The notes: generated from the sequence alone by a model not told the origin. Numbered from the stretch's first letter, positions 7,910 through 63,972 are shown. The stretch is DNA of 64,000 bases from Bdellovibrionales bacterium (GCA_965243065.1 CBDETO010000005.1:387323-451322); one strand, 5' to 3'. Made by a program: numbers and translations.

Positions 7910-7933
7910 AGGGTTTGTTAATTTTTTTCTTGT

Positions 7934-8027
7934 TATACTAATCGTGTTTGAAAAATCCAGTTATTTTCGCGCTTATTCAAAAGTTAGAGCTCCTGTAAGG
8001 CTCGAAAAAATCAAACCCTCTGGGTTT
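7934..8027. repeat. family-C repeat (TATAC..GATCGTGTTTGAAAA ... AAACCCnnnGGGTTT)
   Basis: TATACTAATCGTGTTTGAAAAATCCAG...AAATCAAACCCTCTGGGTTT, between resB and ccsA. Confidence 0.7.
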
Positions 8028-9995: not shown

Positions 9996-10197
9996 AGTTC
10001 AGGATGACTTAAGTTCAGTATTATTATAATTAACTTGTTAAAAAATTAAGTGATTCTAAATAGATACATACTTTTTCTTGAAAAAATATAAGGTTTATAT
10101 AAAACAGGAATATTAAAAAAATAGCATTGCTGATCTTGTTGGTATGGATTTTGCATAACATAGTTTTGAAAAAACTATGTTATTATAAAGAAAGGAG

Positions 10198-10827: not shown

Positions 10828-10866
10828 AAAATCATTTTTCAGTGTGGAGCTTATCTCCGTAGAGCT

Positions 10867-10913
10867 GTCATTCCCGTGAAGCTTGTCCCCGTGGAAGCGG
10901 GGAGCGGGAATCC
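10867..10913. repeat. ATTCCC...GGGAAT hairpin repeat with a second hairpin nested in its loop
   Basis: GTCATTCCCG[TGAAGCTTGTCCCCGTGGAAGCGGGGAG]CGGGAATCC. The same compound form occurs at 63927-63972. Confidence 0.8.
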
Positions 10914-11051: not shown

Positions 11052-12323
11052 TTACTGGTTTAATTTTTCTTCTATGACAGACCATGTTTGTTCTAGCTCT
11101 TTATTACTAGTGCAATAAGGGGGGAGAATATAAACGATATTACCCAAAGGGCGTAAAAACACTCCTTTTTGAAAAGCTTTCTTACTAAATTCTTCAGCAA
11201 AAGAGGAGCTGTATCCTTGGCTCTTTACACGAAACTCCATAGCGGCTATAGTGCCACAGCCTCGTATATCTATTAGATTTTTATGTCCTTTGAGAACCTG
11301 TATTTTTTTTTGGTGGAAAGACTCTATTCTACGCCATTGCTTTTTCCATTTTGTTTTTTTTATTTCTTTAATGTTAGCTGCCGCTGCCGCACAGGAAATA
11401 GGATTACCTGTAAAACTGTGACCATGAAAGAAAAGATGCTTTTTTTCATCAGACAAAAAGCTGTCATAGATTGTTTTATTAGCTACAGTTAAAGCTAACG
11501 GAAGGAAGCCTCCTGTTAATCCTTTGGAGAGGCATAAAAGATCAGGAACCATTCCTAATTTTTGAAAAGCAAACAGCTCTCCAGTTCTTCCAAAGCCGGT
11601 CATTACTTCATCAAAAATAAGGTATAATCCCTTTTTTTTGCTTATAGAGCAAATCTCCTTAAGGGCTTGTTTAGGCCACATAATCATCCCTCCCGCTCCT
11701 TGAATAAAAGGTTCGATAATCACTCCGGCTAAATTAGCATGATACTTTTTAACCTTTTCTGAAAAATCAGAAACATAAGCGGACACAGGGTCATTGGATC
11801 GTGTTCCTTGCTTCACTCTAATAACAGAAAATAACAACTCTTTGTAAGGGTGAGTAAATAGGTTTCTTCCGCTGACACTCATGGCCCCTACAGTGTCCCC
11901 GTGATAAGAATTTTTAAAGGAGATAAACCTATTCCTTTGTGTTTCCCCCTTTGTTTGTTTCCAACTTTGTATGGCCATTTTAAGAGCAGACTCCACAGCC
12001 GTAGAGCCATTATCAGAAAAAAATATGTAAGGTAATTCTTTTGGCAAAATACCTTGTAGTTCTTTTAATAACTTTTTTGCAGGGGGATGATGGAAGTTGG
12101 CAAATAAAACCTGGTCCATTTCCTGGGCTTGTTCTTGTACCGCTTTTACAATAGAGGGTTCGCAGTGTCCAAGAGCAATCACCCACCAGGAGGAAATAGC
12201 GTCAATCACCTCTTTTCCATTTTTTAGATGGATAATACTGCCTTTGGCAGACACTGCCTCCGGCAGTGTTTTTATTTTTTTCATTTGGGTATAAGGGAGC
12301 CAGATTTTAGCTTGTGTTTTCAT
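11052..12323 (-). CDS. bioA: adenosylmethionine-8-amino-7-oxononanoate aminotransferase
   Basis: 423 aa class III aminotransferase with FDEVMTGFGRTG and a PLP-Lys context LCLSKGLTGG. It sits in the bio cluster. Confidence 0.93.
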   Translation of the reverse strand: MKTQAKIWLPYTQMKKIKTLPEAVSAKGSIIHLKNGKEVIDAISSWWVIALGHCEPSIVKAVQEQAQEMDQVLFANFHHPPAKKLLKELQGILPKELPYIFFSDNGSTAVESALKMAIQSWKQTKGETQRNRFISFKNSYHGDTVGAMSVSGRNLFTHPYKELLFSVIRVKQGTRSNDPVSAYVSDFSEKVKKYHANLAGVIIEPFIQGAGGMIMWPKQALKEICSISKKKGLYLIFDEVMTGFGRTGELFAFQKLGMVPDLLCLSKGLTGGFLPLALTVANKTIYDSFLSDEKKHLFFHGHSFTGNPISCAAAAANIKEIKKTKWKKQWRRIESFHQKKIQVLKGHKNLIDIRGCGTIAAMEFRVKSQGYSSSFAEEFSKKAFQKGVFLRPLGNIVYILPPYCTSNKELEQTWSVIEEKLNQ

Positions 12324-13253: not shown

Positions 13254-13528
13254 TGTAAATGTTCACTAATTCGCTGACAAAATGGAGTTTATAAGAGAGT
13301 GTTGTCAGCCCCGATGAGGAGGGGGACTCTTTCATTTACTGGATTCCCGTTTTCACGGGAATGACAGAGAGATAAGTTCTTCAGGAGAGAATAGGGGGCA
13401 AAAGCGAGTTCGGATTTGAGCACAGAGCAACCAAAGGTTGCTTCTGTGGCAAACCGCATGTCTGAGACTTTTGACTCCTATTCTCTCCTGAAGAAGTGAT
13501 TTTGTCAGCGAATTAGTGAACATTTACA
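13254..13528. repeat. IS481-derived MITE (275 bp) carrying a hairpin repeat and a PAL copy
   Basis: The first ~48 bp and the last ~37 bp match the ends of the IS at 26172-27283 (TGTAAATGTTCACTAATTCGCTGACAAAATGGAGTTTATAAG... / ...GAAGAAGTGATTTTGTCAGCGAATTAGTGAACATTTACA). There is no transposase. Confidence 0.85.
13379..13496. repeat. PAL palindromic repeat (inverted orientation), nested in MITE
   Basis: CTTCAGGAGAGAATAGG...CCTATTCTCTCCTGAAGAAG, with a central CACAGAGCAACC-AAA-GGTTGCTTCTGTG hairpin. Confidence 0.85.
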
Positions 13529-13802
13529 ATCCGCGCCAGCGGGAATCTCATACTGACAGGAATTTTCAAACCCGATCATTATAAGTTCAGATAAAAATAA
13601 TGAATAAAAAATGACAGTTGTTTGAAATGTTGTAAAGTTTTTGTCTCTATATGAGAATTTTTAATAAAAATAGCTTAAGCAAGATATTTTTTAATCATTT
13701 TATTATGTATCTCCAATAAAATATCTATAATAAGCTCTATAGGTTTTAAGACTAATGACCGATAAATGAGGGACATTCCAAAATTCAATAACAGGAGGTA
13801 GT

Positions 13803-14162: not shown

Positions 14163-14924
14163 CTAATAATTAATAAACAAAGAGGTTTTTTTAAAGTAGG
14201 GTCGTAAAGTTTCAGGAGACAGCGTATCCAAAAGAGGTAATTCCAGTAGAACGGAAATTTTACCTTTTGTTTCAATATCTTTTTTATTTTTTGCGTGGAG
14301 GGGACCCACCATAATCACTCCCATAAGGGGAATGTTTTTTGATCTTAAAACAGATAAGGTTAAAAAAGTGTGATTAAGGGTTCCTAAAGTGCTTTTAGCA
14401 ACAATAATGACCGGGCAATCCATTTTTTTCATTAGATCAGTCATGTCTTCTTTTTCGTTAAAGGGAACCAAAGCCCCGCCAGCTCCTTCAATTATTAAAT
14501 TAGCCGTACCCTCTGGGCAGTTAATTTTTTCTTTTTGAAGGTTCACTCCTTCCATTTTTGCGGCTTGGTTGGGAGAGAGAGGATTTTTTAAAGTATAAAT
14601 AGAAGGATGAATATTTTGTTCGGGAATAAACCGACTTATAACTTCATTATCTGTTCCAGGAAGTATTTTATTTAGGACAGGTTCAGAGGGTTTAGGAACA
14701 TTTGTAGAAGAAAGCTGTACTGTATTTATTGGTGAAGGTGGAGCAGGCGGGGACGACGAAGGGATATTTGCAGAGGAAAGCTGTGTTGCATTCCCTCCCT
14801 TTGGAACTTGGTAGCCAGCCTGGATAGGTTTCCAGTAATGAGCCGGCCAGGTCATACATAAACCGGCGGCAACAATAGTTTTACCTACATCCGTATCCGT
14901 TCCTGTGATAAAGATTTTTTTCAT
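14163..14924 (-). CDS. bioD: dethiobiotin synthase with ~50-aa Pro/Ser-rich insertion
   Basis: It has the P-loop ITGTDTDVGKT, KPIQAG, EGAGG and GTLNH motifs. There is extra low-complexity sequence between KPIQAG and TDNEV. Confidence 0.85.
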   Translation of the reverse strand: MKKIFITGTDTDVGKTIVAAGLCMTWPAHYWKPIQAGYQVPKGGNATQLSSANIPSSSPPAPPSPINTVQLSSTNVPKPSEPVLNKILPGTDNEVISRFIPEQNIHPSIYTLKNPLSPNQAAKMEGVNLQKEKINCPEGTANLIIEGAGGALVPFNEKEDMTDLMKKMDCPVIIVAKSTLGTLNHTFLTLSVLRSKNIPLMGVIMVGPLHAKNKKDIETKGKISVLLELPLLDTLSPETLRPYFKKTSLFINY

Positions 14925-14964
14925 TTTTTCCTGCCTTCCTGTCCCTCGCCGTCCCTGTCATTCC

Positions 14965-15194
14965 TGTACGTGTTCACTAATTCGCTGACAGAATCACTTC
15001 TTCAGTAGAGAATAGGAGTCAAAAGGCTCAGACATGCGTTTTGCCACAGAGCAACCTTTGGTTGCTCATGTGTCAAATCCGAACTCGCTTTTGCCCCCTA
15101 TTCTCTCCTGAAGAGCTTATCTCTATCCTGCTTTGTATGTCATCCCTATAGCTAACGGGAAGCCATTTTGTCAGCGAATTAGTGAACACGTACA
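14965..15194. repeat. IS481-derived MITE (230 bp) between bioF and bioD
   Basis: The ends are TGTACGTGTTCACTAATTCGCTGACAG... and ...TTTTGTCAGCGAATTAGTGAACACGTACA. The flanks are GTCATTCC | ... | ...GCGGGAATC. Confidence 0.85.
15000..15115. repeat. PAL palindromic repeat, nested in MITE
   Basis: This is the reference copy: CTTCAGTAGAGAATAGGAGTCAAAAGGCTCAGACATGCGTTTTGCCACAGAGCAACCTTTGGTTGCTC...CCTATTCTCTCCTGAAGAG. Confidence 0.85.
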
Positions 15195-15243: not shown

Positions 15244-16386
15244 TCAGTATAATAAAAGTTTTAAAACATGGATTAATTCTTTCAATTGTTTATAAGTATG
15301 ATTGTAATGGATACAAATTCTCAATCTTTCTTTTCCTTTGGCAACGGTAGGATAACGAATGGCCCTTATATCGTAGCCTTTTTTTTGCAAAGTTTTTTCT
15401 ATAGCTAGAGCGGAAGTGGTACTTTCGGTGATAATCGGAATAATCATACTTTCCGAATCTCCGATAGGGGCTAAATTTTTTATTTTATTTCTAAAAAAAT
15501 CTGCTTTTTTCTTTAATAATTCTCTTCTTTTAGCTTCTTTTTTTAACACATTTAATACACATTTTATATAAAATAGAAGAACAGGTGAGGGGGCTGTTGT
15601 ATAGATAAAAGCGCGGCATTTATTAATAAGATACTTTTTTAAAATAGCCGGTCCGGCTATAAAAGCTCCATTAGCGGCCATAGCTTTTCCGCAAGGATGA
15701 ATGCTGATTATATGCTCTTTTTCTCTTAAAGGACCACATAAACCATTTCCTTTTGGACCATAGATCCCTGTGGCATGAGCTTCATCTACGATTAATAAGG
15801 CTTGATATTTTAAAGCCAGTTCAGATAATTCCTGTAAAGGAGCAAAATCCCCATCCATACTGAAAAGGCTTTCCGTAATAATCATTTTGTTTTTTTGTCT
15901 TTCTTTTTTTAATAAATGTTCCAATGTATTCATATCTTTGTGAGGATAAATATGACAAGGGCTGCGACTGAGTCGGCACCCATCAATAAGGCTCGCGTGG
16001 TTCATTTGATCGGAAAAGATGACAGAATTTTTACAAAGAGTTTGAATTAGCCCTAGGTTAGCCATATAACCGGAGCTAAAAAATAGGGCAGATTTTCTAC
16101 CTACATACCGTTGGAACAATTGTTCTGTTTCTTTGTGCCAGGGGGTGTGGCCTCTAATCAATCGAGAAGCTCCTGCACTTAACGGGAGATCTTTTTTTAA
16201 GGCTTGAATCAAGGATTTTCGTATGCCAGCATGATGAGTTAAGGATAAATAATCATTAGAGCTAAAATCAAGACCTTCCGGTGTTTTTAGTTTTCTGTTT
16301 AGATTTTGATGAGCAAGCTGTGTTAGTTCTTTTTCCCATTTAGTAAGATAGAAGGAAATATTTTTTGTCATTTCTTTTTGTTTCAT
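15244..16386 (-). CDS. bioF: 8-amino-7-oxononanoate synthase
   Basis: 380 aa alpha-oxoamine synthase with LIVDEAHATG and a PLP-Lys context (HPCGKAMA). Confidence 0.93.
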   Translation of the reverse strand: MKQKEMTKNISFYLTKWEKELTQLAHQNLNRKLKTPEGLDFSSNDYLSLTHHAGIRKSLIQALKKDLPLSAGASRLIRGHTPWHKETEQLFQRYVGRKSALFFSSGYMANLGLIQTLCKNSVIFSDQMNHASLIDGCRLSRSPCHIYPHKDMNTLEHLLKKERQKNKMIITESLFSMDGDFAPLQELSELALKYQALLIVDEAHATGIYGPKGNGLCGPLREKEHIISIHPCGKAMAANGAFIAGPAILKKYLINKCRAFIYTTAPSPVLLFYIKCVLNVLKKEAKRRELLKKKADFFRNKIKNLAPIGDSESMIIPIITESTTSALAIEKTLQKKGYDIRAIRYPTVAKGKERLRICIHYNHTYKQLKELIHVLKLLLY

Positions 16387-21601: not shown

Positions 21602-23531
21602 CCCGACTTCGACACAACACGATGCAATAAATGAGTAATCTTATATACTTATGATTCTCTGGTGCCACACATTTTTAAGATTATGTTAAGAAATAGGGGT
21701 TATCTGAGAGACTCTTTTAAGATTAAAAGCCTCATATATTTGCTTTATCGGTTCACTGTACTTAGATGGCATACGGTAAAGCTTTTTATGAGCATCCTCT
21801 ATAAGTGAGTATTGATCCCTCTTTAAAACCTCTCTCATCTTCTGTAGGCTGAACTTAAGCCCCCTTTGCTCCATACGATGCTTCATCGTATAGGAAAGGG
21901 AGTAAGCTAAAAAACATATTGCTATATGCGCCTGTATCCTCTTTTTTTTCCAATGATAGACGGGTCTCATTTTAAGGCTGTGTTTGCACACACGAAAAGC
22001 TTCCTCTATCTTCCAAAGTTGTCTGTAACGGGTTAAGAGTGCATGAGCAGACTGATTATCTATGTTGGTTATCACTCCATGAAGACCATCCCACCTGCTG
22101 TCCTCTTCTATCTTTTGCTCATTTAAGCGGGCCTTGGTCCTTTCCACTGTGATGTATTTTTTAGTTCCATAATTACTGATAAGGCTTTTTATAGGTATCC
22201 TATTGTTTTTTACCTTTTTCATAAGACGATCAATGAGCTTTTGTCTGTCACTTTTGCTCTTCTTAGCTCTCCTCTGGGAGTAACTCACTATGAGCCTTCT
22301 TTGTTTATGCTCAAGCTCCTTTACCCATTGAAACTCCTGTGCGACGGAAGCCTCCTGCCTATACTCCTCACTTAATATCTCCTCTCTTTTGGCTTTAGGA
22401 AGAGACTTTATCTTAGCCGCCACCACATACTGAAGACCCTCCTCTTCCATAAGCTTAAGGTTTTGCTCATTAAACATAGCTCTATCCGCCACAATAACAG
22501 CCTTGTTGACGGTAAATCTTTGTTTTAGTTTTTTGATGACGGTAATAAGGGTGTTCCCCTCAGAAGTTCTGCCAGGAAAAAGCTCATAACTTAAAGGATG
22601 ACCCTCTTGATTAGTGACCAAAGCCAATACCACTTGAGTCTGGTTAAACTTCAAATCCTTACTAAAACCAAACTGCCTTATGTCATCTTCATCAAAACTT
22701 TCAAAGTAAAGAGTTGTTACATCAAAAAACAACACATCCACTTCTTGGTTAAAAAGACTTAAAGTGTTCTTGGCCACTAGGTCCTTTACTTTAGCTATGT
22801 TAGGATGAAGACGATCCATCATCCGATACATCTTCTCTAAAGGGACTGTTTCGTTATAATCCTCTCGTAAGGTCTCCACTGTCTTTCTTTTAGAATCAGG
22901 ATGAGCTATACGGGAGAGCACACAGCACTTTAAAATATCATTCCATTGCTCATCTTTTCTAGTACCTTCTATAATGGTATGGAACTTAAGTTGCTCATAC
23001 ACAGCCCCACACACGCCCTTAATGCCATAGTGCACTCTCTCCTTCTCTCTGGGGCTTTTTAGAGAAAAAATAGAAAGAGGCTTCGTTTTTTTCTTCTTCT
23101 TAAGTTTAGACTCAGACTTCTTATTTACATACTCAGGTTCTTTGCTGTAAATGATCTTTTCCATACCTGGTAAAACAGGCTGCCTTTCGTTACTAAGCTT
23201 TACAAGAATCTCCCCAGCGGCCTTCTCTAAAGCTCTTATCCCTTCCTGTGTTTTAGAACTACCTACACAATGCAGAGTTTTTTGAATCACCTTATCTTGG
23301 TGTCGTACGGACTCCATAACACGCACAAAAGAAGAACCATTGGGTTTTTTAGTGACTTTGATGAACATGCTTTTACTGTGTCAGAACAGATAAGAGAAGT
23401 AAATAGGGCCAGTGCCACACAACCTTTATTTTGGGGGTATTTTAACTATCAAAAGTAACCAAAAACACATCTACTCAACCTAAAAACTATCAAAATATTT
23501 TTTTAACCCATAGTGTTGTGTCGAAGTCGGG
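21602..23531 (-). mobile_element. IS1634-family (IS4-like) insertion sequence, ~1.93 kb
   Basis: Terminal inverted repeats are CCCGACTTCGACACAACAC (21602-21620) and GTGTTGTGTCGAAGTCGGG (23513-23531). A perfect 41-bp direct repeat abuts both ends (21561-21601 = 23532-23572). Confidence 0.85.
21686..23368 (-). CDS. IS1634-family DDE transposase
   Basis: 560 aa. The N-terminus MFIKVTKKPNGSSFVRVMESVRHQDKVIQKTL is typical of the IS1634/IS1549 group, and the C-terminal third is DDE-like. Confidence 0.8.
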   Translation of the reverse strand: MFIKVTKKPNGSSFVRVMESVRHQDKVIQKTLHCVGSSKTQEGIRALEKAAGEILVKLSNERQPVLPGMEKIIYSKEPEYVNKKSESKLKKKKKTKPLSIFSLKSPREKERVHYGIKGVCGAVYEQLKFHTIIEGTRKDEQWNDILKCCVLSRIAHPDSKRKTVETLREDYNETVPLEKMYRMMDRLHPNIAKVKDLVAKNTLSLFNQEVDVLFFDVTTLYFESFDEDDIRQFGFSKDLKFNQTQVVLALVTNQEGHPLSYELFPGRTSEGNTLITVIKKLKQRFTVNKAVIVADRAMFNEQNLKLMEEEGLQYVVAAKIKSLPKAKREEILSEEYRQEASVAQEFQWVKELEHKQRRLIVSYSQRRAKKSKSDRQKLIDRLMKKVKNNRIPIKSLISNYGTKKYITVERTKARLNEQKIEEDSRWDGLHGVITNIDNQSAHALLTRYRQLWKIEEAFRVCKHSLKMRPVYHWKKKRIQAHIAICFLAYSLSYTMKHRMEQRGLKFSLQKMREVLKRDQYSLIEDAHKKLYRMPSKYSEPIKQIYEAFNLKRVSQITPIS

Positions 23532-23605: not shown

Positions 23606-23667
23606 AAATCTGGTATGGATTTTGCATAGCTTATTTTTAAAAAACTATGATACTATAAAGAAAGGAG

Positions 23668-24321
23668 ATGAAGATGAGTAAATCCATAATATCACCAGCA
23701 GATGAGATTTGGGCACTTATAAAAGAGACTCAAAGAAATTTAGAGCGGTTTTCGGCAGAAGCAGAGAAGCGGCAAGCAGAAGCAGAGAAGCAAAGGGCAG
23801 AGGAAAAGAAGCAGCAGGCTAAGCGATGGGCTGAAGCAGAGAAACGTAGTGCTGAAATAGATCGGCAGATACAAAAAATAGGGGGCCGTTTTAATGAACG
23901 ATGGGGAGCTTTAGTGGAGTCTTTAGTTGAGGGAAAGCTGGTAAAGATTTTTCAAGGTCATGGGATAGATATAACACAAACTCATACTCGTTCTAAATCA
24001 GAGTGGAGAAAACCGGATGGTCGTATTAAAAGACGGGAGTTTGATATTATTGTGGCTAATGGAACAGAGGTTGTGGTTGTAGAAGTAAAAACCACTTTAG
24101 TTCCTAAAGATGTTACTGTTTTTTTAGAAACACTTAGGGATTTTAGAAATTACTTTCGAAGATATAAGACGGAAATCATCTATGGGGCGGTAGCCTATCT
24201 AGCCAGTGAGAGTAGGGCGCATTTGCTTGCGGAGGAAGAGGGTTTATTTCTTATCCGAGCTACAGGGGACAGTGCCAGCCTGGTTAATAGAAAAGACTTT
24301 AAACCCAAAGCTTTTAGCTGA
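23668..24321 (+). CDS. coiled-coil + PD-(D/E)XK nuclease-fold protein (DUF3782-like), paralogue B
   Basis: 217 aa. The 5' leader, the first 14 codons and the last ~150 codons are nearly identical to 10198-10827. The coiled-coil segment is unrelated in sequence. Confidence 0.5.
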   Translation: MKMSKSIISPADEIWALIKETQRNLERFSAEAEKRQAEAEKQRAEEKKQQAKRWAEAEKRSAEIDRQIQKIGGRFNERWGALVESLVEGKLVKIFQGHGIDITQTHTRSKSEWRKPDGRIKRREFDIIVANGTEVVVVEVKTTLVPKDVTVFLETLRDFRNYFRRYKTEIIYGAVAYLASESRAHLLAEEEGLFLIRATGDSASLVNRKDFKPKAFS

Positions 24322-24423
24322 AGAATCATTTTTCAGTGTGGAGCTGATCTCCATAGATCTGTCATTCCTGTAAAGCTTGAACTTTGTCATTCCCGCGCAA
24401 GCGGGAATCTCATTGCTCTTGCT

Positions 24424-25960: not shown

Positions 25961-26069
25961 TCAAACATGCGGTTTGCCACAGAGCAACCTTTGGTTGCTC
26001 TATGTCAAGCTTGTCCCCGCGAAAGCGGGGATCCGAACTCGCTTTTGCCCCCTATTCTCTCCTGAAGAG
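25961..26069. repeat. PAL repeat, right arm, with a nested CTTGTCCCCGCGAAAGCGGGGAT mini-hairpin
   Basis: TCAAACATGCGGTTTGCCACAGAGCAACCTTTGGTTGCTC...CCTATTCTCTCCTGAAGAG. Confidence 0.8.
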
Positions 26070-26148
26070 TCTATCTCTATCCTGCTTTGTATGTCATCCC
26101 CATAGCTAACGGGAAGCCATTTTGTCAGCGAATTTGTGAACATTTACA
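26070..26148. repeat. MITE right-end segment abutting the IS481-type element
   Basis: ...ATCTCTATCCTGCTTTGTATGTCATCCCCATAGCTAACGGGAAGCCATTTTGTCAGCGAATTTGTGAACATTTACA. Confidence 0.75.
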
Positions 26149-26171
26149 ATTCCCGCAAAGTATGTCATTCC

Positions 26172-28731: not shown

Positions 28732-28815
28732 GCGTATTATGATAATAAAAAATCTTATCATACGCAAGAGACTAGCTTAAAAAACTAAAAGATGTCGTTT
28801 GTTTTAATTGGAAAG

Positions 28816-28965
28816 TTCACCAATAAAAACCCTTTGGGTTTGAAGTAGAGGATAAATTTGTCATAGATTTTACCGTAGTTCACCAATAAAAACCCTTTGG
28901 GTTTAAAAGAGTGGTAAATTTGTCATAGATTTTACCGTAGTTCACCAATAAAAACCCTTTGGGTT
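28816..28965. repeat. 62-bp tandem repeat array (2.5 units)
   Basis: TTCACCAATAAAAACCCTTTGGGTTTAAAAGAGTGGTAAATTTGTCATAGATTTTACCGTAG repeats at 28816, 28879 and 28941. Confidence 0.85.
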
Positions 28966-28978
28966 AATGATGAATCTG

Positions 28979-29088
28979 TCGGAAGAGAATAGGGCTTAAA
29001 AGGCTCGGACATGCGGTTTGCCACAGAGCAACCTTTGGTTGCTCGTATGTCAAATCCGAACTCGCTTTTAAGCCCTATTCTCTTCCGA
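28979..29088. repeat. PAL palindromic repeat inserted in the 62-bp array
   Basis: TCGGAAGAGAATAGGGCTTAAAAGGCTCGGACATGCGG...CTTTTAAGCCCTATTCTCTTCCGA. Confidence 0.8.
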
Positions 29089-29112
29089 AAGAAGCTTTTT
29101 TCTTTATGTGAG

Positions 29113-29214
29113 AGATTTTACCAAAGTTTATCAAATAAAACCCTTTGGGTTTAAAAGAGTGGTAAATTTGTCATAGATTTTACCGTAGTTCACCAATAAA
29201 AACCCTTTGGGTTT
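29113..29214. repeat. 62-bp tandem repeat array (continuation); last hairpin overlaps the S8 peptidase stop codon
   Basis: Same unit as 28816-28965. AAACCCTTTGGGTTT at 29200-29214 includes the TAA (complement of 29213-29215). Confidence 0.8.
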
Positions 29215-30658
29215 AGTTTTTGTTGAAGAACCATCGTTTTAGAATAGATTGTTTTTTTTGGTTTTTGGAAGAAGGGTTACGCCCTAGGTTTTCCTTGTTT
29301 TTTACAGTTTCTTTTTTTGATGAATTTATTACTTCAGTTGGTTTTCCTTGTAGAACTTCATTAACCATTTTTATTTCCGATAAATCTTTTAGACTGAGAG
29401 GGCCTCCTTGGACAAAAGAAGAAATATCTCTGTCGGATTCGAATATTTTTCCGCTGGGATCTACCACAGTCTCATCCATGAAATTGAGGTTTTTTCCTCG
29501 GGCTTGTAATGCTTTAAAAATGTTAAGCCGTCTTCTTTGGCTGGTTTTTCCAACTAAACTTTGTTTAATATCTCCTGTCATCTTTAGCTGCTTTATAACA
29601 AAATGGGCTGTTTTATTTTTGTAATAATCCATCACGAGCACAGCCGCTCCCGTGGCTACGGCTGTTGCCTGGGAAGTTCCTGTCATGCGTCCGTATTTTC
29701 CTCCTGGGAGAGTGGATAAGATGTTGTAACCGGGAGCTGATTTGTGGACGGTCTTTTGCCCCCAGTTGCTGCTTCTTAAAACTTTATCTGAATGATCTGT
29801 AGCCGTTACAGGGAGGATGTTGCTTAGTTCGTATTTAGCCGGGTAATAACCGCTTTTATCCATGTTTGATTTTTCATTTCCGGAAGCGGCCACAAAAAGA
29901 ATACCTTTTCGTTCTGCCTCTTGAATAGCTTGTTTTTCTCTTTCATTTCCATTTAGCCCGCCGCCGGAGTAGTTTATGATATGTGCCCCGTTTTGAATAG
30001 CATAATGGATGGCTTTAATTGTATTATTTAAGTTATTTTTTCCATTATCATTTATATCATAATACTTAAGCGTCATTAGACTAACTTTAGGGGCCACTCC
30101 ACTGATACCAATACCATTTCCTCCTTCGGCTCCGATAATCCCGGCTATGTGGGTGCCGTGTCCATGAGTGTCTTTAATATTGTTGTTGTTTTTAACAAAG
30201 TTCCAGCCGTTTATATCATCTATATAACCGTTTTTGTCATCGTCTAGGCCATTTCCTGGAATTTCCTTTTTGTTGACCCATATATTTGCTTTGAGATCAG
30301 GATGATTTATATCCGTACCTGTATCTATAATAGCTACAATAATATCTTTGCTTCCTTTAGAAAACTTAAGCCAGGCGTCTTTTACATTGGTTTTTTGTAA
30401 ATCCCACTTTTTTTTCATCAGAGGGTCGCTCATAATGAGTTGCACTTCTTTTTCCGGCTCTTTTTCCTGTTTGGCTGTGCCTAGACTAATATGTCTTTTA
30501 GGTGGTGTGCCAGTTGTGGCATTTTCTTCCCCTTTTTGTTGTATTTTATGGGCGGCTTTTTGTTTCTCTTTGCTGTTTTGAAATAGAGTGTTTTTATTTT
30601 TTTCCGCCAGGGCTAAAGGAATAAAAAGGCTAAAAACGACTAGTAGAATCTTATTCAT
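29213..30658 (-). CDS. secreted subtilisin-like serine peptidase (S8 family)
   Basis: The catalytic triad contexts are AIIDTGTD, HGTHIAGIIG and GTSQATAVATGAA. The start is set at MNKILLVVFSLFIPLALA (signal peptide) rather than the track start at 30715. Confidence 0.9.
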   Translation of the reverse strand: MNKILLVVFSLFIPLALAEKNKNTLFQNSKEKQKAAHKIQQKGEENATTGTPPKRHISLGTAKQEKEPEKEVQLIMSDPLMKKKWDLQKTNVKDAWLKFSKGSKDIIVAIIDTGTDINHPDLKANIWVNKKEIPGNGLDDDKNGYIDDINGWNFVKNNNNIKDTHGHGTHIAGIIGAEGGNGIGISGVAPKVSLMTLKYYDINDNGKNNLNNTIKAIHYAIQNGAHIINYSGGGLNGNEREKQAIQEAERKGILFVAASGNEKSNMDKSGYYPAKYELSNILPVTATDHSDKVLRSSNWGQKTVHKSAPGYNILSTLPGGKYGRMTGTSQATAVATGAAVLVMDYYKNKTAHFVIKQLKMTGDIKQSLVGKTSQRRRLNIFKALQARGKNLNFMDETVVDPSGKIFESDRDISSFVQGGPLSLKDLSEIKMVNEVLQGKPTEVINSSKKETVKNKENLGRNPSSKNQKKQSILKRWFFNKN

Positions 30659-30727: not shown

Positions 30728-30843
30728 AGATTCCCGCTTTTGCCTCCTATTCTCTCCTGAAGAGCTGATCTCTATCCTGCTTTGTATGTCATCCCCATAG
30801 CTAACAGGAAGCCATTTTGTCAGCGAATTAGTGAACATTTACA
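30728..30843. repeat. MITE right-arm segment upstream of the S8 peptidase gene
   Basis: GATTCCCGCTTTTGCCTCCTATTCTCTCCTGAAGAGCTGATCTCTATCC...TTTTGTCAGCGAATTAGTGAACATTTACA. Confidence 0.75.
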
Positions 30844-34829: not shown

Positions 34830-34892
34830 TGTTAGTGGGGAGTTTAAAAGTTTGGCTAATCAAAAAATAATACCCAATGGGATATAGTGCTT

Positions 34893-35027
34893 TTCCTAAG
34901 AGAATAGGAGTCAAAGGGCTTCAAACATGCGTTTTGCCACAGAGCAACCTTTGGTTGCTCGTGTGTCAAGCTTGTCCCCGCGAAAGCGGGGATCCGAACT
35001 CGCTTTTGACCCCTATTCTCTTAGGAA
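34893..35027. repeat. PAL palindromic repeat with nested mini-hairpin
   Basis: TTCCTAAGAGAATAGGAGTCAAAGGG...CAAGCTTGTCCCCGCGAAAGCGGGGATCCGAACTCG...CCTATTCTCTTAGGAA. Confidence 0.8.
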
Positions 35028-36924: not shown

Positions 36925-37202
36925 TAAAATACCGCTCTTTTCTGGTAGAAGTTTATATATAACTATGAAAAGTTTAGCATATTTTGCCAAAAAAACCTAC
37001 TATGGTGAAGAGAACCTCCATCCTGTTTGATTTTTGAAACCCTGTTTTTTACCTAAATAAGGAGTCAACAGAGCCATATTAAGCTGATTTTTTATTGGAG
37101 ATTTTATTGTTTATGGTATAATTCTTTATGCTAGAATTTTTATATCGGAGGAAAGAACTAAAAAGTTACGGAAAAATAAAGCTCTTTTGATATATTTTAC
37201 TT

Positions 37203-37314
37203 TTCATAAGAGAATAGGAGTCAAAAGGCTCAGACATGCGTTTTGCCACAGAGCAACCTTTGGTTGCTCGTGTGTCAAATCCGAACTCGCTTTTTCCTCC
37301 TATTCTCTTATGAA
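37203..37314. repeat. PAL palindromic repeat upstream of erpA
   Basis: TTCATAAGAGAATAGGAGTCAAAAGGCTCAGACATGCGTTTTGCCACAGAGCAACCTTTGGTTGCTC...CCTATTCTCTTATGAA. Confidence 0.85.
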
Positions 37315-37411
37315 AAAGGATATATAGTTTTTTATTTATCCTTGTTTAGATCTCAGAAAATTTTGCAAAGTTCGGAGCAATAAAACCCTTTGGGTAAGGA
37401 GATTAAAAGTA

Positions 37412-43359: not shown

Positions 43360-43595
43360 ACAATCCGTATTATATAACCTGGTCTCCCCCTTCCCTTTAA
43401 TCATTGTCCTTCCCGTGGAAACGGGAATACTACCCGATGGGTATATTTCCATTTTATTATTGTAATGTTTGTATTATTGTGTAAAACAGCGAATACACCT
43501 TACCAGGAAAAAATGAAAAGCTCATTTTTTAAATGAAGGTAGTCACTTTCTTCAGAGGAGAATAGGAAAACTCAAACATAACCAGAAGGTATAAT

Positions 43596-45023
43596 ATGGT
43601 TCTATTTTTACTTTTATTTTTTTCTATTTCTGTGGAAGCTCAGTCTATGCCTCCATTTTCATACGGTGCAAAGTTATCCGCAATAACAAAAGCAGAAATA
43701 CAGCTGACAGATAATCTGTTAAATCGGCTGGTTCCAGACATGATATCTGGGAAAGAGAGAGAGATAAGAAAAGCTGTTAGTACACTTAAATCTTTACCTA
43801 ATGTAGGTAAAAGGATGAGTGTTTACGAGACAGACTCTCAAGTGGTTGAAGCAGGAAATATCTATTTTCAATCTGGGTTAAAAAGTTATAAAAATTTAAC
43901 CGCAGATATTAATAGTCCAAATTGGGTTTCTTTGATATTTGATCCATCCTTAAAAAAAGAAGAGGAGATGAAAGCGATAGTCAGAGATTTACGATTATCT
44001 CTTGTTTTTTTTAGTTTAGCCGGGTTTGACTCTCTTGATGGAAAAAATAAGTACCTGGAAGTCTTTCATCAATTTCAGGTATTACTTGCCACTCTTTTTG
44101 AACTATATAGAAAATCTACAATAGAACAGGATACTTCTATAAAAGAGCCTTTCGTAAGTTCTTACTCAGAAAAAGTTAGATACCTACAATCTATCAGAAA
44201 ATTTCAACATTTTTATAAACAGTTAATGGAAATGTATTTTCAAGTTATGGAACCATCTTTTCGGCATTTGTCATGGTTGCGAGATAACTTAGTAGATATT
44301 TCTTTTAAAGCAAAACATGAAACATTATTAAATAATAGTAACAAAATAGAAAGGATAATGAAAGAGATCATGGCTTCTAAAAATGGCGCGAGTAAGTCTT
44401 TGTACCAAACTGGTATAGAAAATGGGGCCACTAGCAGAGCTTCTCTCCCCATGAGAGAAAAACAGAAACAACCAGAAAAGCCTACCTTTGCACAGGAGGA
44501 GAGCAACTGGACTGGTATAGCTTCTGAAGAGCCAGCAGGTAGAGCAGGAAATCAGATAAACGGGAAGAGAGTAAGAAGTTTTACGGTTACTAAGAGTGGC
44601 TATGAAGGTGAGCGGTTAGTTTCTGAAGAATTAGCAGGAAAGGACAAAGTAAGCAGAGAGAGAGTAAGAGATTTGACGGCAACTGAGATAGAGGAGGGTG
44701 AGCGGTTAGTTTCTAAAGAACGAGCAGGGGTTACTGAGATAAACGACGGGGGATTAAAAGGCTTAGTAGTGGCAAGTGATCCGATGAATATGGACTCTCT
44801 GAAGGGCTTGAACCCTAATGAGAAAATGGAGAGCACGCCTTCTCTTCCTGAGACATTTATAGCAGATGATAAAATAGATATGGAGATGCTCAGAGGGTTC
44901 ACAGCTACTAAAAGTAGTGATACCTCTGCTAAAGATAGTGATATAACTACTAAAGATAGTGGTGATAATCTTTCCATTCTTAAAAGGTTGAATATTTTTT
45001 GTAAAAGAGCGTTTTCAGAATAA
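43596..45023 (+). CDS. secreted protein, unknown function
   Basis: 475 aa with a signal peptide and C-terminal internal repeats (GERLVSEELAG / GERLVSKERAG). Its last 14 codons lie in the 110-bp duplication. Confidence 0.6.
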   Translation: MVLFLLLFFSISVEAQSMPPFSYGAKLSAITKAEIQLTDNLLNRLVPDMISGKEREIRKAVSTLKSLPNVGKRMSVYETDSQVVEAGNIYFQSGLKSYKNLTADINSPNWVSLIFDPSLKKEEEMKAIVRDLRLSLVFFSLAGFDSLDGKNKYLEVFHQFQVLLATLFELYRKSTIEQDTSIKEPFVSSYSEKVRYLQSIRKFQHFYKQLMEMYFQVMEPSFRHLSWLRDNLVDISFKAKHETLLNNSNKIERIMKEIMASKNGASKSLYQTGIENGATSRASLPMREKQKQPEKPTFAQEESNWTGIASEEPAGRAGNQINGKRVRSFTVTKSGYEGERLVSEELAGKDKVSRERVRDLTATEIEEGERLVSKERAGVTEINDGGLKGLVVASDPMNMDSLKGLNPNEKMESTPSLPETFIADDKIDMEMLRGFTATKSSDTSAKDSDITTKDSGDNLSILKRLNIFCKRAFSE

Positions 45024-45089
45024 AATTATTGAGATGTTTTTTTATTAGATAAAAGCTCAGAAAGAACAGGTTCCATTTCTTCAATAGAA
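44980..45089. repeat. 110-bp direct repeat, copy 1 (left flank of the C-R-M cassette)
   Basis: It is identical to 47123-47232 except for one base (G/A at TTTTCAGAATAAA). It contains the true 3' end of the 475-aa gene and a pseudo-copy of the TlpA-like gene's 3' end. Confidence 0.9.
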
Positions 45090-45167
45090 CCCATCAAGAG
45101 ACCGAACCGGTTTTGCTTGCTGCCCTCTTAAATAAAGAAAATCAGAATCATTATTAAAAATTATAAA

Positions 45168-45200
45168 TGCTAACTTTAGTATGTAGAACTAAAATTAGCA
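45168..45200. promoter_or_regulatory. C-box-like operator palindrome upstream of the controller gene
   Basis: TGCTAACTTTAGT-ATGTAGA-ACTAAAATTAGCA has 13-bp arms matching 12/13. It lies 36 bp upstream of the C-protein ATG. Confidence 0.6.
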
Positions 45201-45235
45201 AATCTTTATACTCAAAACAAATTGATGCGTTCTTT

Positions 45236-45463
45236 ATGAAGTATATGAGTAACAATATATTAAAAAAATTTGGAAAACGAGTTCGGCAAGAACGAGTAAA
45301 ACAAAACCTTTCCCAAGAAGAACTGGCTGAAAAAGCTGGTGTTCATCGCACTTATATCGGAATGGTAGAAAGAGCAGAAAAAAATATTACTCTTCAAAAT
45401 ATAGAAAAGATTGCCAAAGCTCTTAAAACCTCTATCAATAATTTGATGAAACTGGAGAAATAA
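45236..45463 (+). CDS. R-M controller (C) protein, XRE-type HTH
   Basis: LSQEELAEKAGVHRTYIGMVERAEKNITLQNIEKIAKAL is typical of C proteins. The alternative start is ATG 45245. The track start at 45167 lies inside the operator palindrome. Confidence 0.8.
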   Translation: MKYMSNNILKKFGKRVRQERVKQNLSQEELAEKAGVHRTYIGMVERAEKNITLQNIEKIAKALKTSINNLMKLEK

Positions 45464-45469
45464 ATAACT

Positions 45470-46066
45470 GTGGGAAAAAAAGAATTAAGAAAAAGAGACA
45501 AATGGCAAGATTCCAGTGGAGAAAAAGCTGGAGTTGCAGAAAAAACTTTTTATGAAGTTTTCTTGAAAGAATTCAAAGATTCAGATTTAAGAATACGAGC
45601 AAAGCCAAAAGAATTTAAAAATATCTATTCTAATATAGAACTCGATAAAAAAATATTAGAAGATATATATAACCCACATAAAGAATGGGTGCATGGTGTA
45701 CATCCAGATTTTGCTATAGATAATATAAAAACAAAAAAAACACTGTATGTAGAAGTTAAAAGACAAGATGGTTGGGTAGAAGGAAAACCCCCTAGTGTTG
45801 GTAGAGGAAATGCACATGAGAGATCATGCAAATTTTTTACACCAGGATTATTAAAAATATTAAGAAAACAAGGAAGACTTGGCGATAAAATCTTACCATT
45901 TTGGGTAGTTTTTCAAGGTGATATTGCGCGTGATCCAAAAAGAGTAAGAGAAATAACTTATTGGTACGCTGAATACTCTGCTCATTTCTTCATGTGGAGT
46001 AATTCAACAAGCGATAAATTACTGATTAAACATTTTAATAATGACCTTAAGTATCTTCTAGATTAA
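45470..46066 (+). CDS. type II restriction endonuclease (PD-(D/E)XK)
   Basis: 198 aa with a GTG start 6 nt after the C-gene stop. It has HPDFAI...LYVEVKRQ (D...ExK). It is positioned between a C gene and a convergent methyltransferase. Confidence 0.6.
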   Translation: MGKKELRKRDKWQDSSGEKAGVAEKTFYEVFLKEFKDSDLRIRAKPKEFKNIYSNIELDKKILEDIYNPHKEWVHGVHPDFAIDNIKTKKTLYVEVKRQDGWVEGKPPSVGRGNAHERSCKFFTPGLLKILRKQGRLGDKILPFWVVFQGDIARDPKRVREITYWYAEYSAHFFMWSNSTSDKLLIKHFNNDLKYLLD

Positions 46067-46130
46067 AAACCAGTTTCTCATTTTATATTTCTTCTAGAAA
46101 ATTATTTCATTAAATAATGAAAAGTTGTCA

Positions 46131-46886
46131 TTAGATATTAAGGAAAGGGAATCTTTTCTGCCCCTCATTTTCAAAGATACTTTGGTTTCTTTTTTTTTCT
46201 GTGGTTTGATTTGAAAAAGAGCTATCTAATGACGACCTAATCACATCTAAACCCCAAGCTGACCAACCCTTAATTTTTTTTCTTGCAAATAATTCAATAC
46301 GCTCCTGATTTGGAAACATTTTTTCTATTCTTTTCATTACTTCTATAGGTTTTTTACTATGTTCCTGTCTTGGACTCCGTATTAACTGTTGGACATTTCT
46401 CGCGCCTCTAGGTTTAGGTATTCTACCTCGCTTAAATACTAAACATAACTCACAATTTGAAAGAGTGTATTGTCCAGGATTATGATTCATTTTATCCCAA
46501 ACAAATGCAACTGTTCTATAATCAAATCCCCAAGCTTTTCCCAATTCTATAGCTTGAGCTAAATGAGGATTTGTTACCCACATAAATAAAAGACAGTCAT
46601 CTTTTGAAATTTTATTAATAGGTATTATCATTAATTCATTTGTTTTTAGTGTTGGATATTTAAAATCAGCTGTACTAATGAATATCTTTTTTGATAGGTC
46701 AATTTTTTCTTTATTTTTGCTACTTTTATCGTATTGTAGTTTTCCATTATAATTCCATGGTGGGTCAGCGTAGATAATATCAAATTTTTTATTTGGTAAC
46801 TTGGGATAAGTACCAGGTAGAGTATTTTTTACTATCCTCCGCTTAGTCTCCTTATTGTAAATTGAATACCCAGTTTTTTTATTCAT
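46131..46886 (-). CDS. MT-A70-family DNA adenine methyltransferase
   Basis: DIIYADPPWNY catalytic motif, then ...LFMWVTNP...GFDY...VWDK... and SKKP. Confidence 0.85.
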   Translation of the reverse strand: MNKKTGYSIYNKETKRRIVKNTLPGTYPKLPNKKFDIIYADPPWNYNGKLQYDKSSKNKEKIDLSKKIFISTADFKYPTLKTNELMIIPINKISKDDCLLFMWVTNPHLAQAIELGKAWGFDYRTVAFVWDKMNHNPGQYTLSNCELCLVFKRGRIPKPRGARNVQQLIRSPRQEHSKKPIEVMKRIEKMFPNQERIELFARKKIKGWSAWGLDVIRSSLDSSFSNQTTEKKRNQSIFENEGQKRFPFLNI

Positions 46887-47122
46887 AAAATAAATTTAGC
46901 CTATAAATTTTTTAAAACTTACATTTAGATAACTATAGTATGTATAGATTATATTTTTTATGCAACAAAAAATGGTATCTTCTAAAAAGGATTAACGCAA
47001 AATTCCATCCGATTATTTTAATGGGAATGTTTGCTTGAAATATTGTCCTTGACCCTCAATAATAGGATACCTCCTAAAAAAGGGGGAAAGTAGAAAAATT
47101 CTATGAAAGAGCCTTTTATATT

Positions 47123-47232
47123 TTAAAAGGTTGAATATTTTTTGTAAAAGAGCGTTTTCAAAATAAAATTATTGAGATGTTTTTTTATTAGATAAAAGCT
47201 CAGAAAGAACAGGTTCCATTTCTTCAATAGAA
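47123..47232. repeat. 110-bp direct repeat, copy 2 (right flank of the C-R-M cassette)
   Basis: It contains the true 3' end of the TlpA-like gene and a pseudo-copy of the last 14 codons of the 475-aa gene. Confidence 0.9.
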
Positions 47233-47750
47233 AACACTCCTGCTTGCTTTTTTACAATCTGCAGGTTCTGGTCTAAAATAAATGTTTCAGGCCACTTTGC
47301 TACATTAAATTTTTTTGAAACTTCAAACTCAGAGTCCCAAAGGATATAGGTGTTGTTATTATTGAAATTAACTCCTTCCCTTTTTAAATTTTTTAGAAAT
47401 TCCTGAATATCTGTTTTTGAAGAGTCATTAGATACAGCCAGAAGTATCACATCTCCCTGGAACCGCTCTACAGTGGAAATAAGATCAGGAAATTCTTTTC
47501 GGCACGGCAGGCACCAGGAAGCCCAAAAATTTAAAATAACTGGTTTTCCTTTGAGGTTTTCGAGGGAAAAATCTTTCCCTTTAAGATCTTTTATATTTAT
47601 TTGAGGAGCGGGAGAGGAATCCCAGGAGGAGGAATCTTTGTTAAAAGAAGGAGATATAGTGTCTTCAGAAAATAAACGGATAAAGCCTGTATAATGCAGG
47701 CTTAGAACCATCATTCCCACTATAAAAAAGAAAATAAGCCCTTTTATCAT
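47169..47750 (-). CDS. TlpA-like thiol:disulfide oxidoreductase (second copy)
   Basis: It has a TM anchor and WASWCLPC. The start is moved to ATG 47750. Its last 21 codons lie in the 110-bp duplication. Confidence 0.8.
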   Translation of the reverse strand: MIKGLIFFFIVGMMVLSLHYTGFIRLFSEDTISPSFNKDSSSWDSSPAPQINIKDLKGKDFSLENLKGKPVILNFWASWCLPCRKEFPDLISTVERFQGDVILLAVSNDSSKTDIQEFLKNLKREGVNFNNNNTYILWDSEFEVSKKFNVAKWPETFILDQNLQIVKKQAGVFSIEEMEPVLSELLSNKKTSQ

Positions 47751-57686: not shown

Positions 57687-57842
57687 TTTTCAAGAGAAAA
57701 GAAGAGTCAAAAACTCAGACATGCGTTTTGCCACAAATATGTCATTCCCGCGAAAGCGGGAATCTAGTTGCTCTTGTGCTCAAGCTTGTCCCCGTGAAAA
57801 CGGGGATCCGACTCGCTTTTTCCTCTTATTCTCTTCTGAAAA
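57687..57842. repeat. PAL repeat carrying two nested hairpin insertions
   Basis: ...CTCAGACATGCGTTTTGCCACA[AATATGTCATTCCCGCGAAAGCGGGAATCTAG]TTGCTCTTGTGCTCAAG[CTTGTCCCCGTGAAAACGGGGAT]CCGACTCG... Confidence 0.8.
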
Positions 57843-58298
57843 GATGTTGTTTTCTATATACGATCGTCAGGCAGAGTACTGTGGCTTTATACCGAACTGG
57901 TATGGCTGTGGAAACCTATCTTTTCAACAGAGTTGATATAGTGAAGAAGCTCTGTTTCCATTTTTTATGTCATTTCACAAAACAAATTATACTTATCCGG
58001 TACGGGATTCCTGTTCTTTGTTTTTACGAGGACAAGCTTCACGGGAAGGACAAACATTTACAGGAATATTGTCATTTCTACAAAGTATGTCATGCCCGCG
58101 GAAGCGGGCATCTCATAAGCTACGGCTTTGTCACCTCCGCGAAAGCGAGGGTCTCATAGCTACGAGGAATAATGATCTATGAGTAAAAATATGTTCTTCA
58201 GGAAAACAGTGTTACCTTACTGGATTCCCGCTTTCGCGGGAATGACAGTGCTTTTACGGGAATGACAGTGCTGGCGCAGGCAATGACAGATGGATAAG

Positions 58299-58418
58299 CT
58301 TTTCAGGAGAGAAGTAGGGGGCAAAAGCGAGTTCGGATTTGATACAGAGCAACCGAAGGTTGCTTCTGTGGCAAACCGCATGTCTGAGACTTTTGACTCC
58401 TACTTCTCTCCTGAAGAA
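58299..58418. repeat. PAL palindromic repeat (inverted orientation)
   Basis: CTTTTCAGGAGAGAAGTAGGGGGCAAAAGCGAGTTCGGATTTGATACAGAGCAACCGAAGGTTGCTTCTGTGGCAAACCGCATGTCTGAG...CTCCTGAAGAA. Confidence 0.85.
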
Positions 58419-58534
58419 CAAGAGCGACTGGATTCCCGCTTTCGCGGGAATGACAGGGGAAGAGGAAAGGAATGCAATTAAACCAGGAAGTAATTTAGTT
58501 AAGGGATGTAAGTAATAAATTAACTAAAAAAGGG

Positions 58535-63866: not shown

Positions 63867-63926
63867 AGTGTGAGTCTTTTATTTTGGAAAAACATTTCGA
63901 AGATGAATAAATAAGGGAGGGAATTT

Positions 63927-63972
63927 GTCATTCCCGCGAAGCTTGTCCCCGTGGAAACGGGGAGCGGGAATC
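63927..63972. repeat. compound hairpin repeat after the 1157-aa gene
   Basis: GTCATTCCCGCGAAGCTTGTCCCCGTGGAAACGGGGAGCGGGAATC, followed by the start of a PAL arm (CTCTTCAGTAG) at the window edge. Confidence 0.8.

Follow-up and report, generated by a model that had tools for sequence, protein, structure and literature searches.

Organization of the locus

The DNA analyzed here is a 64,000-nt stretch from a Bdellovibrionales bacterium (GCA_965243065.1 CBDETO010000005.1:387323-451322), referred to below as the window. Within it we focus on the locus at 43,596-47,232, where a restriction-modification (R-M) cassette lies between two convergent host genes and is bracketed by a long direct repeat. 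The source assembly is a metagenome-derived contig of 2.08 Mb. The useful comparison contigs, designated by L numbers, were all obtained via exact-protein look-ups in European Nucleotide Archive (ENA) assemblies. The cassette comprises genes for a controller protein (C), a restriction endonuclease (R) and a DNA methyltransferase (M), and the features of the locus are as follows.

43596-45023, plus strand: 475-amino acid (aa) host gene, an open reading frame (ORF) of no known family, fast-evolving, with internal repeats of 90-99 nt
44980-45089: direct repeat copy 1, in which the 475-aa gene is represented by its true last 44 nt and the TlpA-like gene by a 64-nt pseudo-3'-end, with a 2-nt spacer between them; also present in L001
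45090-45143: left private end of the insert, not common to other cassette copies (alignments to L084 and L085 begin at 45144 and 45152)
45168-45200: predicted C-box, a 33-nt palindrome TGCTAACTTTAGTATGTAGAACTAAAATTAGCA with 13-nt arms, near base-for-base conserved upstream of C in L084, L085 and L086
45245-45463, plus strand: C gene, 72 aa (maximal ORF from 45167); HTH_3 match 3e-17, PADLOC RM Control_protein match 6e-23
45470-46066, plus strand: R gene, encoding a MunI-family type IIP restriction endonuclease of 198 aa from a GTG start; Pfam RestrictionMunI match 1.8e-69
46131-46886, minus strand: M gene, N6-adenine DNA methyltransferase of the MT-A70 family, M.MunI-like and circularly permuted, 251 aa, convergent with R
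46925-46959: candidate second operator upstream of M, with the C-box-like half-site TATAGTATGTAT; partly conserved (kept in L084, less in L085)
47009-47122: right private end of the insert, not common to other cassette copies (homology stops at 46973 for L085 and at ~47008 for L084)
47123-47232: direct repeat copy 2, in which the 475-aa gene is represented by a 44-nt pseudo-3'-end and the TlpA-like gene by its true last 64 nt, with the 2-nt spacer between them
47169-47750, minus strand: TlpA-family thiol-disulfide oxidoreductase host gene, 193 aa from a conserved ATG (maximal ORF to 47795); AhpC-TSA and Redoxin matches

The two repeat copies, 44980-45089 and 47123-47232, are identical at 109 of 110 positions, the sole mismatch being a G at 45018 against an A at 47161. 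Self-BLAST of the 64-kb window, within which copy number was counted, returned these two copies only. The true stop codon of the 475-aa ORF lies inside copy 1, ending at 45023, and that of the TlpA-like ORF lies inside copy 2, at 47169-47171 on the minus strand; when the repeat is collapsed to a single copy, the two stop codons come to lie 2 nt apart. An initial annotation of this DNA had given the same coordinates and a single mismatch for the repeat and had described each copy as one real and one pseudo gene end, and both statements are upheld by these alignments and stop positions.

The insert between the repeats measures 2033 bp (45090-47122) and has a GC content of 30%, compared with 37% in the flanks on both sides. 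Its gene content is limited to C, R and M, and the family matches of the three products, together with the conservation of the operator (see below), agree with the earlier description of an AT-rich C-R-M module with a C-box-like palindrome. The outermost ~54 nt on the left and ~115-150 nt on the right are private to this insert. Because the ends are not conserved between cassette copies, the cassette has no defined termini. The inverted-repeat listing gave no terminal inverted repeats at the insert ends (45090 and 47122). No integrase or transposase is encoded in the insert, and the shared gene order of L082 and L083 places none within at least 7-8 kb to its left or right, in good agreement with the initial annotation; the nearest transposase gene lies at 21686-23368. 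With non-conserved ends, no terminal inverted repeats and so distant a transposase, a transposon, a composite of insertion sequence (IS) elements and a miniature inverted-repeat transposable element (MITE) were all rejected as explanations. The inserted DNA is foreign.

Window positions 43473-46692 are matched at 100% identity by L001, a metagenome contig from an independent ENA assembly, which shows the order 475-aa gene end, pseudo-TlpA end, C, R and part of M. The left junction and copy 1 of the duplication are thus confirmed outside the source assembly. The final 118 nt of L001 resembled a variant junction and turned out to be low-complexity junk.

The 475-aa protein had no Pfam or NCBIfam match, and its homologues P0002 (45% identity) and P0003 (37%) are encoded at syntenic positions in L082 and L083. 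The 3' half of its gene contains imperfect internal tandem repeats of 90-99 nt (44518-44728) and has ~67% nucleotide identity between congeners, compared with 83-89% for the neighboring genes, while the last ~15 codons are conserved. For the TlpA-like gene, the exact 193-aa product is on record, relatives are named as members of the TlpA disulfide reductase family, and the start is most likely at 47750, the position of the conserved ATG. Neither repeat copy contains a terminator-like site and the fold z-score of the junction DNA is just -1.7, on which grounds a bidirectional terminator or other special structure at the junction was rejected. A 25-nt similarity between 47092-47116 and 44128-44152 was judged to be due to chance.

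The C-R-M cassette

The predicted C-box consists of TGCTAAnTTTAGT, a 7-nt spacer and ACTAAAnTTAGCA, was scored as a 13-pair hairpin and sits ~45 nt upstream of the ATG at 45245; on its 3' side, at 45207-45212, lies the -10-like hexamer TATACT. A C-box operator is expected to look like this, with a 33-nt palindrome and a -10-like hexamer, and experiments have identified binding sites for C proteins that include C.MunI (PMC2632904). The initial annotation had begun C at 45167, the start of the maximal ORF. This was corrected to the ATG at 45245, which is conserved in three related cassettes and is the most likely start (72 aa), because the longer ORF would run through the operator. The resulting protein has 89% and 75% amino-acid identity to the C proteins of L084 and L085, respectively. 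A small helix-turn-helix (HTH) protein encoded upstream of R and a symmetric operator conserved at four loci together mark C as a probable controller protein.

Residues 1-198 of the R protein align to residues 1-202 of R.MunI (PDB 1D02; E-value 1e-64), and the PD...ExK catalytic residues are kept (P79-D80, and E95 and K97 in E95-V-K97). The segment GRGNAHERSCK is identical to residues 114-124 of R.MunI. In the MunI-DNA crystal structure this segment is reported to be the recognition loop with the base-contacting residues, and because of the identity the predicted specificity of R is likely CAATTG. Four CAATTG sites occur in the window, compared with 6.9 expected; these numbers are not informative, and avoidance of the site as a sign of long residence was rejected. 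The M protein matches MT-A70 (Pfam, 7e-24; 85.1 bits compared with a cut-off of 23.9) and PADLOC MTase_II (4e-64), carries a DPPW motif (IIYADPPWNY) and belongs to a 90%-identity cluster of at least 10 members. M.MunI has been placed in a group of N6-adenine methyltransferases that are circularly permuted and related to MT-A70 (PMC4738411).

C, R and M are intact in each of three genomes, across which the ratio of nonsynonymous to synonymous substitution rates (dN/dS) is ~0.1 for R and M (0.10-0.16 for R) and 0.06-0.40 for the short C gene. With dN/dS ~0.1 for R and M, the C-R-M unit appears to be under purifying selection and, because intact genes are combined with low dN/dS, it is most likely functional. 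In such a unit, M, transcribed from its own promoter, would methylate and thereby protect host DNA, C would bind its 33-bp palindromic operator ahead of the C-R operon and delay and autoregulate the endonuclease, and R, as a PD..ExK nuclease, would cut unmethylated sites.

An empty site in related genomes

Homologues of the 475-aa protein led to two ENA contigs, L082 and L083, which match the window in gene order for ~18 kb, with a nucleotide identity of 83-89%; for L082 the colinear part runs from about 40.6 to 54 kb of the window. In L082 (~85% nucleotide identity), a 503-aa homologue of the 475-aa protein has its gene end at 9512 and the convergent TlpA gene starts at 9515, leaving a 2-nt spacer, and this single junction (9467-9580) aligns to both repeat copies with identity at 83 of 110 positions. 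Collapsing the window repeat to one copy predicts precisely this arrangement. The finding of an empty site with one junction copy supports the earlier proposal that the cassette had been inserted with duplication of its target while both host genes stayed intact. The initial annotation had also considered that the 110-bp sequence might prove to be an ordinary dispersed repeat, which was not borne out: it is present in two copies in the window and in a single copy at L082. Two more distant relatives, L087 and L088, carry a convergent pair of TlpA and a ~410-aa gene without the cassette, and no flanking duplications were found at the TlpA junctions of L002, L087, L088 and L082.

The surroundings of these genes vary in other ways. 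Compared with the window, L082 contains a 2.77-kb insertion (5178-7944) between a 402-aa gene and the 503-aa gene, ~1.5 kb from the junction, which holds a decayed type III-like R-M system with a fragmented Mod carrying a DPPY motif and fragmented Res/helicase ORFs; it has no long flanking repeat. In L002 (8612-13900), a 49%-identical Bdellovibrionales relative, a TlpA paralogue is followed by genes resembling, by eye only, a cyclic oligonucleotide-based antiphage signaling system (CBASS), namely a patatin-like lipase and a nucleotidyltransferase-like protein, and then by an HTH/ImmA/methyltransferase trio. The regions downstream of TlpA are variable in Bdellovibrionales.

The cassette at other loci

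Through the M cluster, copies of the cassette with 82-84% nucleotide identity were found on three other contigs, L084, L085 and L086. The divergence of the copies at synonymous sites (dS) is 0.5-1.0 for R and M. In L085/L086, the cassette (5856-7909) lies between a nuoI-like gene and recO, which are co-directional, and has no flanking direct repeat. The corresponding empty nuoI-recO site, with a 71-nt spacer, is present in L089 (5935-5976), which is ~90% identical and comes from the same sample as L086. In comparison with L089, ~42 nt have been replaced by 2054 nt in L085/L086. Populations with and without the cassette coexist, as L086 and L089 from one sample demonstrate. The absence of a duplication in L085, where the genes are separated by a 71-nt spacer, shows that target duplication is not obligatory for insertion.

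In L084 the cassette is part of a Thoeris-containing island and adjoins a Y1 transposase; a relative of one L084 protein is annotated as Oligoflexia. L084 also shows a perfect 881-bp tandem duplication (5812-7570, with 5812-6689 equal to 6693-7570) that covers the 5' region of M and 107 nt of flank and gives rise to two MT-A70 ORFs beside Thoeris ThsA/ThsB and the Y1 transposase, as the result of either amplification or a long-read assembly artefact.

None of the cassette copies in L084, L085 and L086 is accompanied by the 110-bp sequence. Cassette copies without such flanks had been regarded in the initial annotation as grounds to reject target duplication. They do occur, but we read them as support for it: because the copies at two other loci lack such flanks, the 110 bp is host target sequence and not an attachment (att) site, a terminal repeat or any other part of the element.

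A second insertion at the same junction

L083 carries a different cargo of 2814 bp at the same junction, between a gene for a 418-aa homologue and TlpA. The cargo encodes a major facilitator superfamily (MFS) efflux protein, a 287-aa protein whose match to an HExxH hydroxylase is weak and below threshold, and a 145-aa ORF, and gave no R-M or PADLOC defence match. On its two sides lie copies of a 60-nt direct repeat (9221-9280 and 12095-12154, 53 of 60 positions identical) which, as in the window, contains for each gene a real and a pseudo end. The left boundary of this repeat lies 7 nt, and its right boundary 43 nt, from that of the window repeat.

Over the 60 alignment columns shared by the two repeats, the copies within a genome agree at 59/60 (window) and 53/60 (L083) positions, compared with 48-50/60 between genomes. 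Because the copies are closer within than between genomes, the two duplications appear to be lineage-specific and to have arisen separately after the lineages split, barring gene conversion. The mismatches between the L083 copies lie mostly in the pseudo halves, as an older event would give. At the single mismatch of the window repeat, L082 and both L083 copies have A, so that the A at 47161 is ancestral and the G at 45018, which is in the functional copy, is derived; it changes the last residue of the 475-aa protein from K to E.

Origin of the duplication

We consider it highly probable that, taken as a whole, this structure arose by host-driven illegitimate insertion of an R-M fragment with duplication of the target. 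A foreign fragment of ~2.03 kb, made up of the cassette core and unrelated ends of ~54 and ~115-150 nt, would have entered the junction of the convergent genes, and 110 bp of target would have been copied, made up of the spacer with 44 nt from the end of one gene and 64 nt from the end of the other. Both genes would thereby have kept intact 3' ends and some of their native downstream sequence. The duplicated DNA is the host's own and would have been produced by its illegitimate recombination functions, with no transposase or integrase encoded by the element. By the most likely route, breaks in the two strands ~110 nt apart would have been joined to the ends of the foreign fragment and the single-stranded stretches filled in; this staggered-break version is tentative, and taken by itself we regard it as possible rather than probable. 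One homologous join combined with one illegitimate join upstream of it would be an equivalent alternative.

The cause of the duplication appears to lie in the target site and host repair, and not in the cassette or its restriction activity, because the same cassette occurs with and without a duplication and another cargo occurs with a duplication of its own. Where convergent genes abut, nearly only duplications that span both stops would spare both genes, and selection would enrich them; surviving events would carry such a duplication because, with stops 2 nt apart, other insertions would truncate one gene. The insertion appears to be recent, since the repeats are ~1% apart compared with a dS of 0.5-1.0 between cassettes and an identity of 75-83% for the orthologous junction sequence. 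Post-segregational killing is an established property of type II R-M systems, and killing by this R-M pair would oppose loss of the cassette through recombination between the 110-bp repeats.

Several points weigh against this reading. An older event could look recent if the repeats had been homogenized by gene conversion. The comparison genomes, at ~83-89% identity, are congeners and not strains, and the empty site is therefore the orthologous state and not the direct pre-insertion allele. The immediate donor is unsampled, with no R or C protein of at least 90% identity elsewhere. The right junction (47122/47123) has no support from an independent assembly. Two hits at one junction among three related genomes are more than a purely random process would be expected to give. 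Moreover, the sequence cannot separate staggered-break repair, homology-facilitated illegitimate recombination and a circular single-crossover route.

The last of these routes corresponds to a Campbell-type spread, in which a circle of the cassette and one junction copy, excised from a sibling genome and taken up by transformation, is integrated by a RecA-dependent single crossover after the duplication had been made earlier in a different cell of the population. Excision and re-integration through the repeats would regenerate the exact structure, and by our own estimate 110 bp at 99% identity are enough for homologous recombination. Such a spread leaves the first origin of the duplication unexplained, and the source sample gave no evidence of a circular form or an empty-site variant (the 475-aa protein is alone in its 90%-identity cluster). 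Furthermore, the donor copy would have to be at least 99% identical to that of the recipient, which confines the process to at most a step within a population, and we regard it as improbable. The most serious rival, as one junction was hit twice, is site-specific integration, with the repeats as the left and right attachment sites (attL/attR) of an integrase-less, cis-mobilizable element (CIME-like or Xer/dif-dependent) that targets the junction, has the gene ends copied in its attP and is served by a recombinase encoded elsewhere. Two cargos at the same junction in two genomes, flanked by repeats that overlap in a 60-nt core spanning both stops, are what this would produce, and recurrence at one site is typical of att integration. 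However, no integrase was found in either insert or in the syntenic flanks, the cassette occurs at two other loci without the 110-bp sequence or a flanking repeat, and the insert ends are not conserved between cassette copies. The repeats also match the junction of their own genome (59/60 and 53/60, compared with 48-50/60), which a shared attP would not. GC skew gave no terminus, and no dif-like match to an Escherichia coli-type core was found at up to 3 mismatches. Site-specific integration is therefore very unlikely in our estimation.

That the cassette is ancestral and was lost from L082 by precise recombination between the repeats would account for the 2-nt spacer in L082, which such recombination would restore. 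Against this, the repeats are 99% identical while the orthologous junction sequence is 75-83% identical, the cassette copies differ by a dS of 0.5-1.0 for R and M, L083 has another cargo and other repeat boundaries, the outgroups L087 and L088 are without the cassette, and the insert has a GC content 7 points below that of the flanks; an ancestral cassette is hardly credible on this evidence. An assembly artefact, in which a strain-variant bubble or a mis-join made a spurious duplicated junction, comes to mind because the source contig is metagenome-derived and because L001, the only independent contig, ends inside M with junk and does not cover the right junction. Nonetheless, L001 does show the pseudo-TlpA end between the end of the 475-aa gene and C-R-M, the repeat copies have one base of difference, both genes read through cleanly and an analogous structure is present in the unrelated long-read assembly L083, all of which makes an artefact extremely unlikely.

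Host-driven insertion might also be favored by the position of the junction. GC skew is positive over the whole window, for which reason the plus strand is probably the leading strand and the replication fork would meet TlpA head-on at the junction. As a speculation, a head-on junction may be break-prone, its breaks being repaired by capture of foreign DNA with fill-in. The generalization that 3'-3' convergent junctions are recurrent, cargo-independent targets of host-driven insertion, with 60-110 bp duplicated, is one we think rather unlikely. If it were true, long target duplication would generally mark break repair where convergent genes end and would not be a property of R-M systems.

Other features of the window and database searches

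The window contains an abundant family of palindromic, MITE-like repeats of ~120 nt that lie between genes and end in terminal inverted repeats (CTTCAGGAGAGAATAGG...CCTATTCTCTCCTGAAG); some of them are nested or in tandem, and relatives occur in L082. Since this family is unrelated to the 110-bp repeat, a dispersed-repeat explanation of the latter was rejected.

13360-13535, 14960-15130, 26025-26155, 28814-29215, 30735-30843, 34890-35021, 37195-37320, 57690-57780 and 58275-58425: MITE-like repeats in the window
14491-14641 and 16044-16190: MITE-like repeats in L082

The transposase gene at 21686-23368 (minus strand) is of the IS type (DDE_Tnp_1), encodes the only recombinase among the ORFs scanned and lies more than 21 kb from the cassette. 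At 10140-10885 and 23611-24379 (also 63926-63972) there are paralogous ~210-aa genes that belong to no known family; with their flanks they share 94% identity over 526 nt. This 526-bp repeat pair (10360 and 23854) was rejected as the flanks of an island, as it consists of paralogous genes bracketing the biotin-synthesis, prs and ychF core genes. ATGCAT and CATATG are both absent from the 64-kb window, compared with ~8 expected for each under a Markov model, and several GC-rich palindromes are absent as well; the absence of ATGCAT and CATATG may reflect site avoidance caused by other restriction systems of the lineage.

Scans of Joint Genome Institute (JGI) metagenomes with the 475-aa and 596-aa flanking proteins gave no relatives, and neither P0015 nor the maximal TlpA ORF had an exact match. 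In a scan of species-representative genomes, the best match to TlpA was a Bdellovibrionales metagenome-assembled genome (MAG) at 49% identity, with none closer. A plasmid or phage as the vehicle was also rejected: a search of 72,556 plasmids gave no MunI-family matches, and a phage search gave one unannotated phage fragment at 54% identity.

Comparison with known systems

The cassette resembles the MunI system in that R aligns end to end with R.MunI, including PD..ExK and GRGNAHERSCK, M belongs to MT-A70 and a C protein is present. It differs in that, by eye, about half of the aligned residues of R are identical, and the CAATTG specificity is a prediction made here. The original MunI system is from a Mycoplasma. 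The arrangement is also that of C-controlled type II R-M systems (PvuII, EcoRV, AhdI), with a small HTH gene directly upstream of R and presumably co-transcribed with it, a symmetric operator of ~33-35 bp upstream of C and M on a separate convergent transcript. The operators of C proteins fall in ten published motif classes (Sorokin et al, 2009; PMC2632904).

Integrative elements that restore gene 3' ends, such as integrative and conjugative elements (ICEs), CIMEs and prophages in the ends of tRNA or protein genes, likewise leave foreign DNA flanked by repeats containing a gene 3' end, with the gene intact. Here, in contrast, an integrase is absent, the repeat is not carried along by the cassette, the termini are not conserved and the repeat copies the genome's own allele.

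The closest parallel is insertion with long target duplication. The initial annotation had compared the locus with this phenomenon as inferred from Helicobacter genomes; the class is indeed known, and it has been described more widely. According to one study (Furuta, Abe & Kobayashi, 2010, NAR 38:2428; PMC2853133), it is seen for R-M types I-IV in several phyla, with Helicobacter, Haemophilus, Campylobacter, Neisseria, Microcystis and others, and the repeats often span start or stop codons; the selection argument given above is made there for such repeats. The criteria used in that study are R and M in an insert of <20 kb, a repeat of >30 bp, an empty site and no mobility genes, and all of these are found at the window locus, with the multi-copy status of the repeat judged within 64 kb. 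Long target duplication has also been reported for "other DNAs" (PMC3457768). The locus shares with the published cases a short insert with R and M, a repeat of >30 bp that is single-copy at the empty site, the lack of mobility genes, a repeat spanning gene ends and an insert GC content below that of the genome. Insertion of R-M genes with long target duplication is also said to have been reported by Nobusato et al. 2000, in Gene 259:99.

Several aspects set the window locus apart. Bdellovibrionota are not among the taxa named in the available part of the 2010 study (PMC2853133), the repeat spans the stops of two convergent genes with a 2-nt spacer, and the empty site comes from another species (~85% identity) and not from a conspecific strain. 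Moreover, a second event without R-M genes is present at the junction in a congener, and the same cassette occurs elsewhere without duplication. The locus adds one more case to insertion with long target duplication, which is a known but mechanistically unexplained class, and would extend the phenomenon to Bdellovibrionota, with a probable CAATTG-specific system circulating among related uncultured bacteria of the predatory type. The movement of solitary R-M cassettes free of transposase and integrase is still unexplained, and for this question the cassette family provides a clean natural experiment at three loci, one with the 110-bp duplication and one without, both of these with a matching empty site, and a third, in L084, without a comparator.

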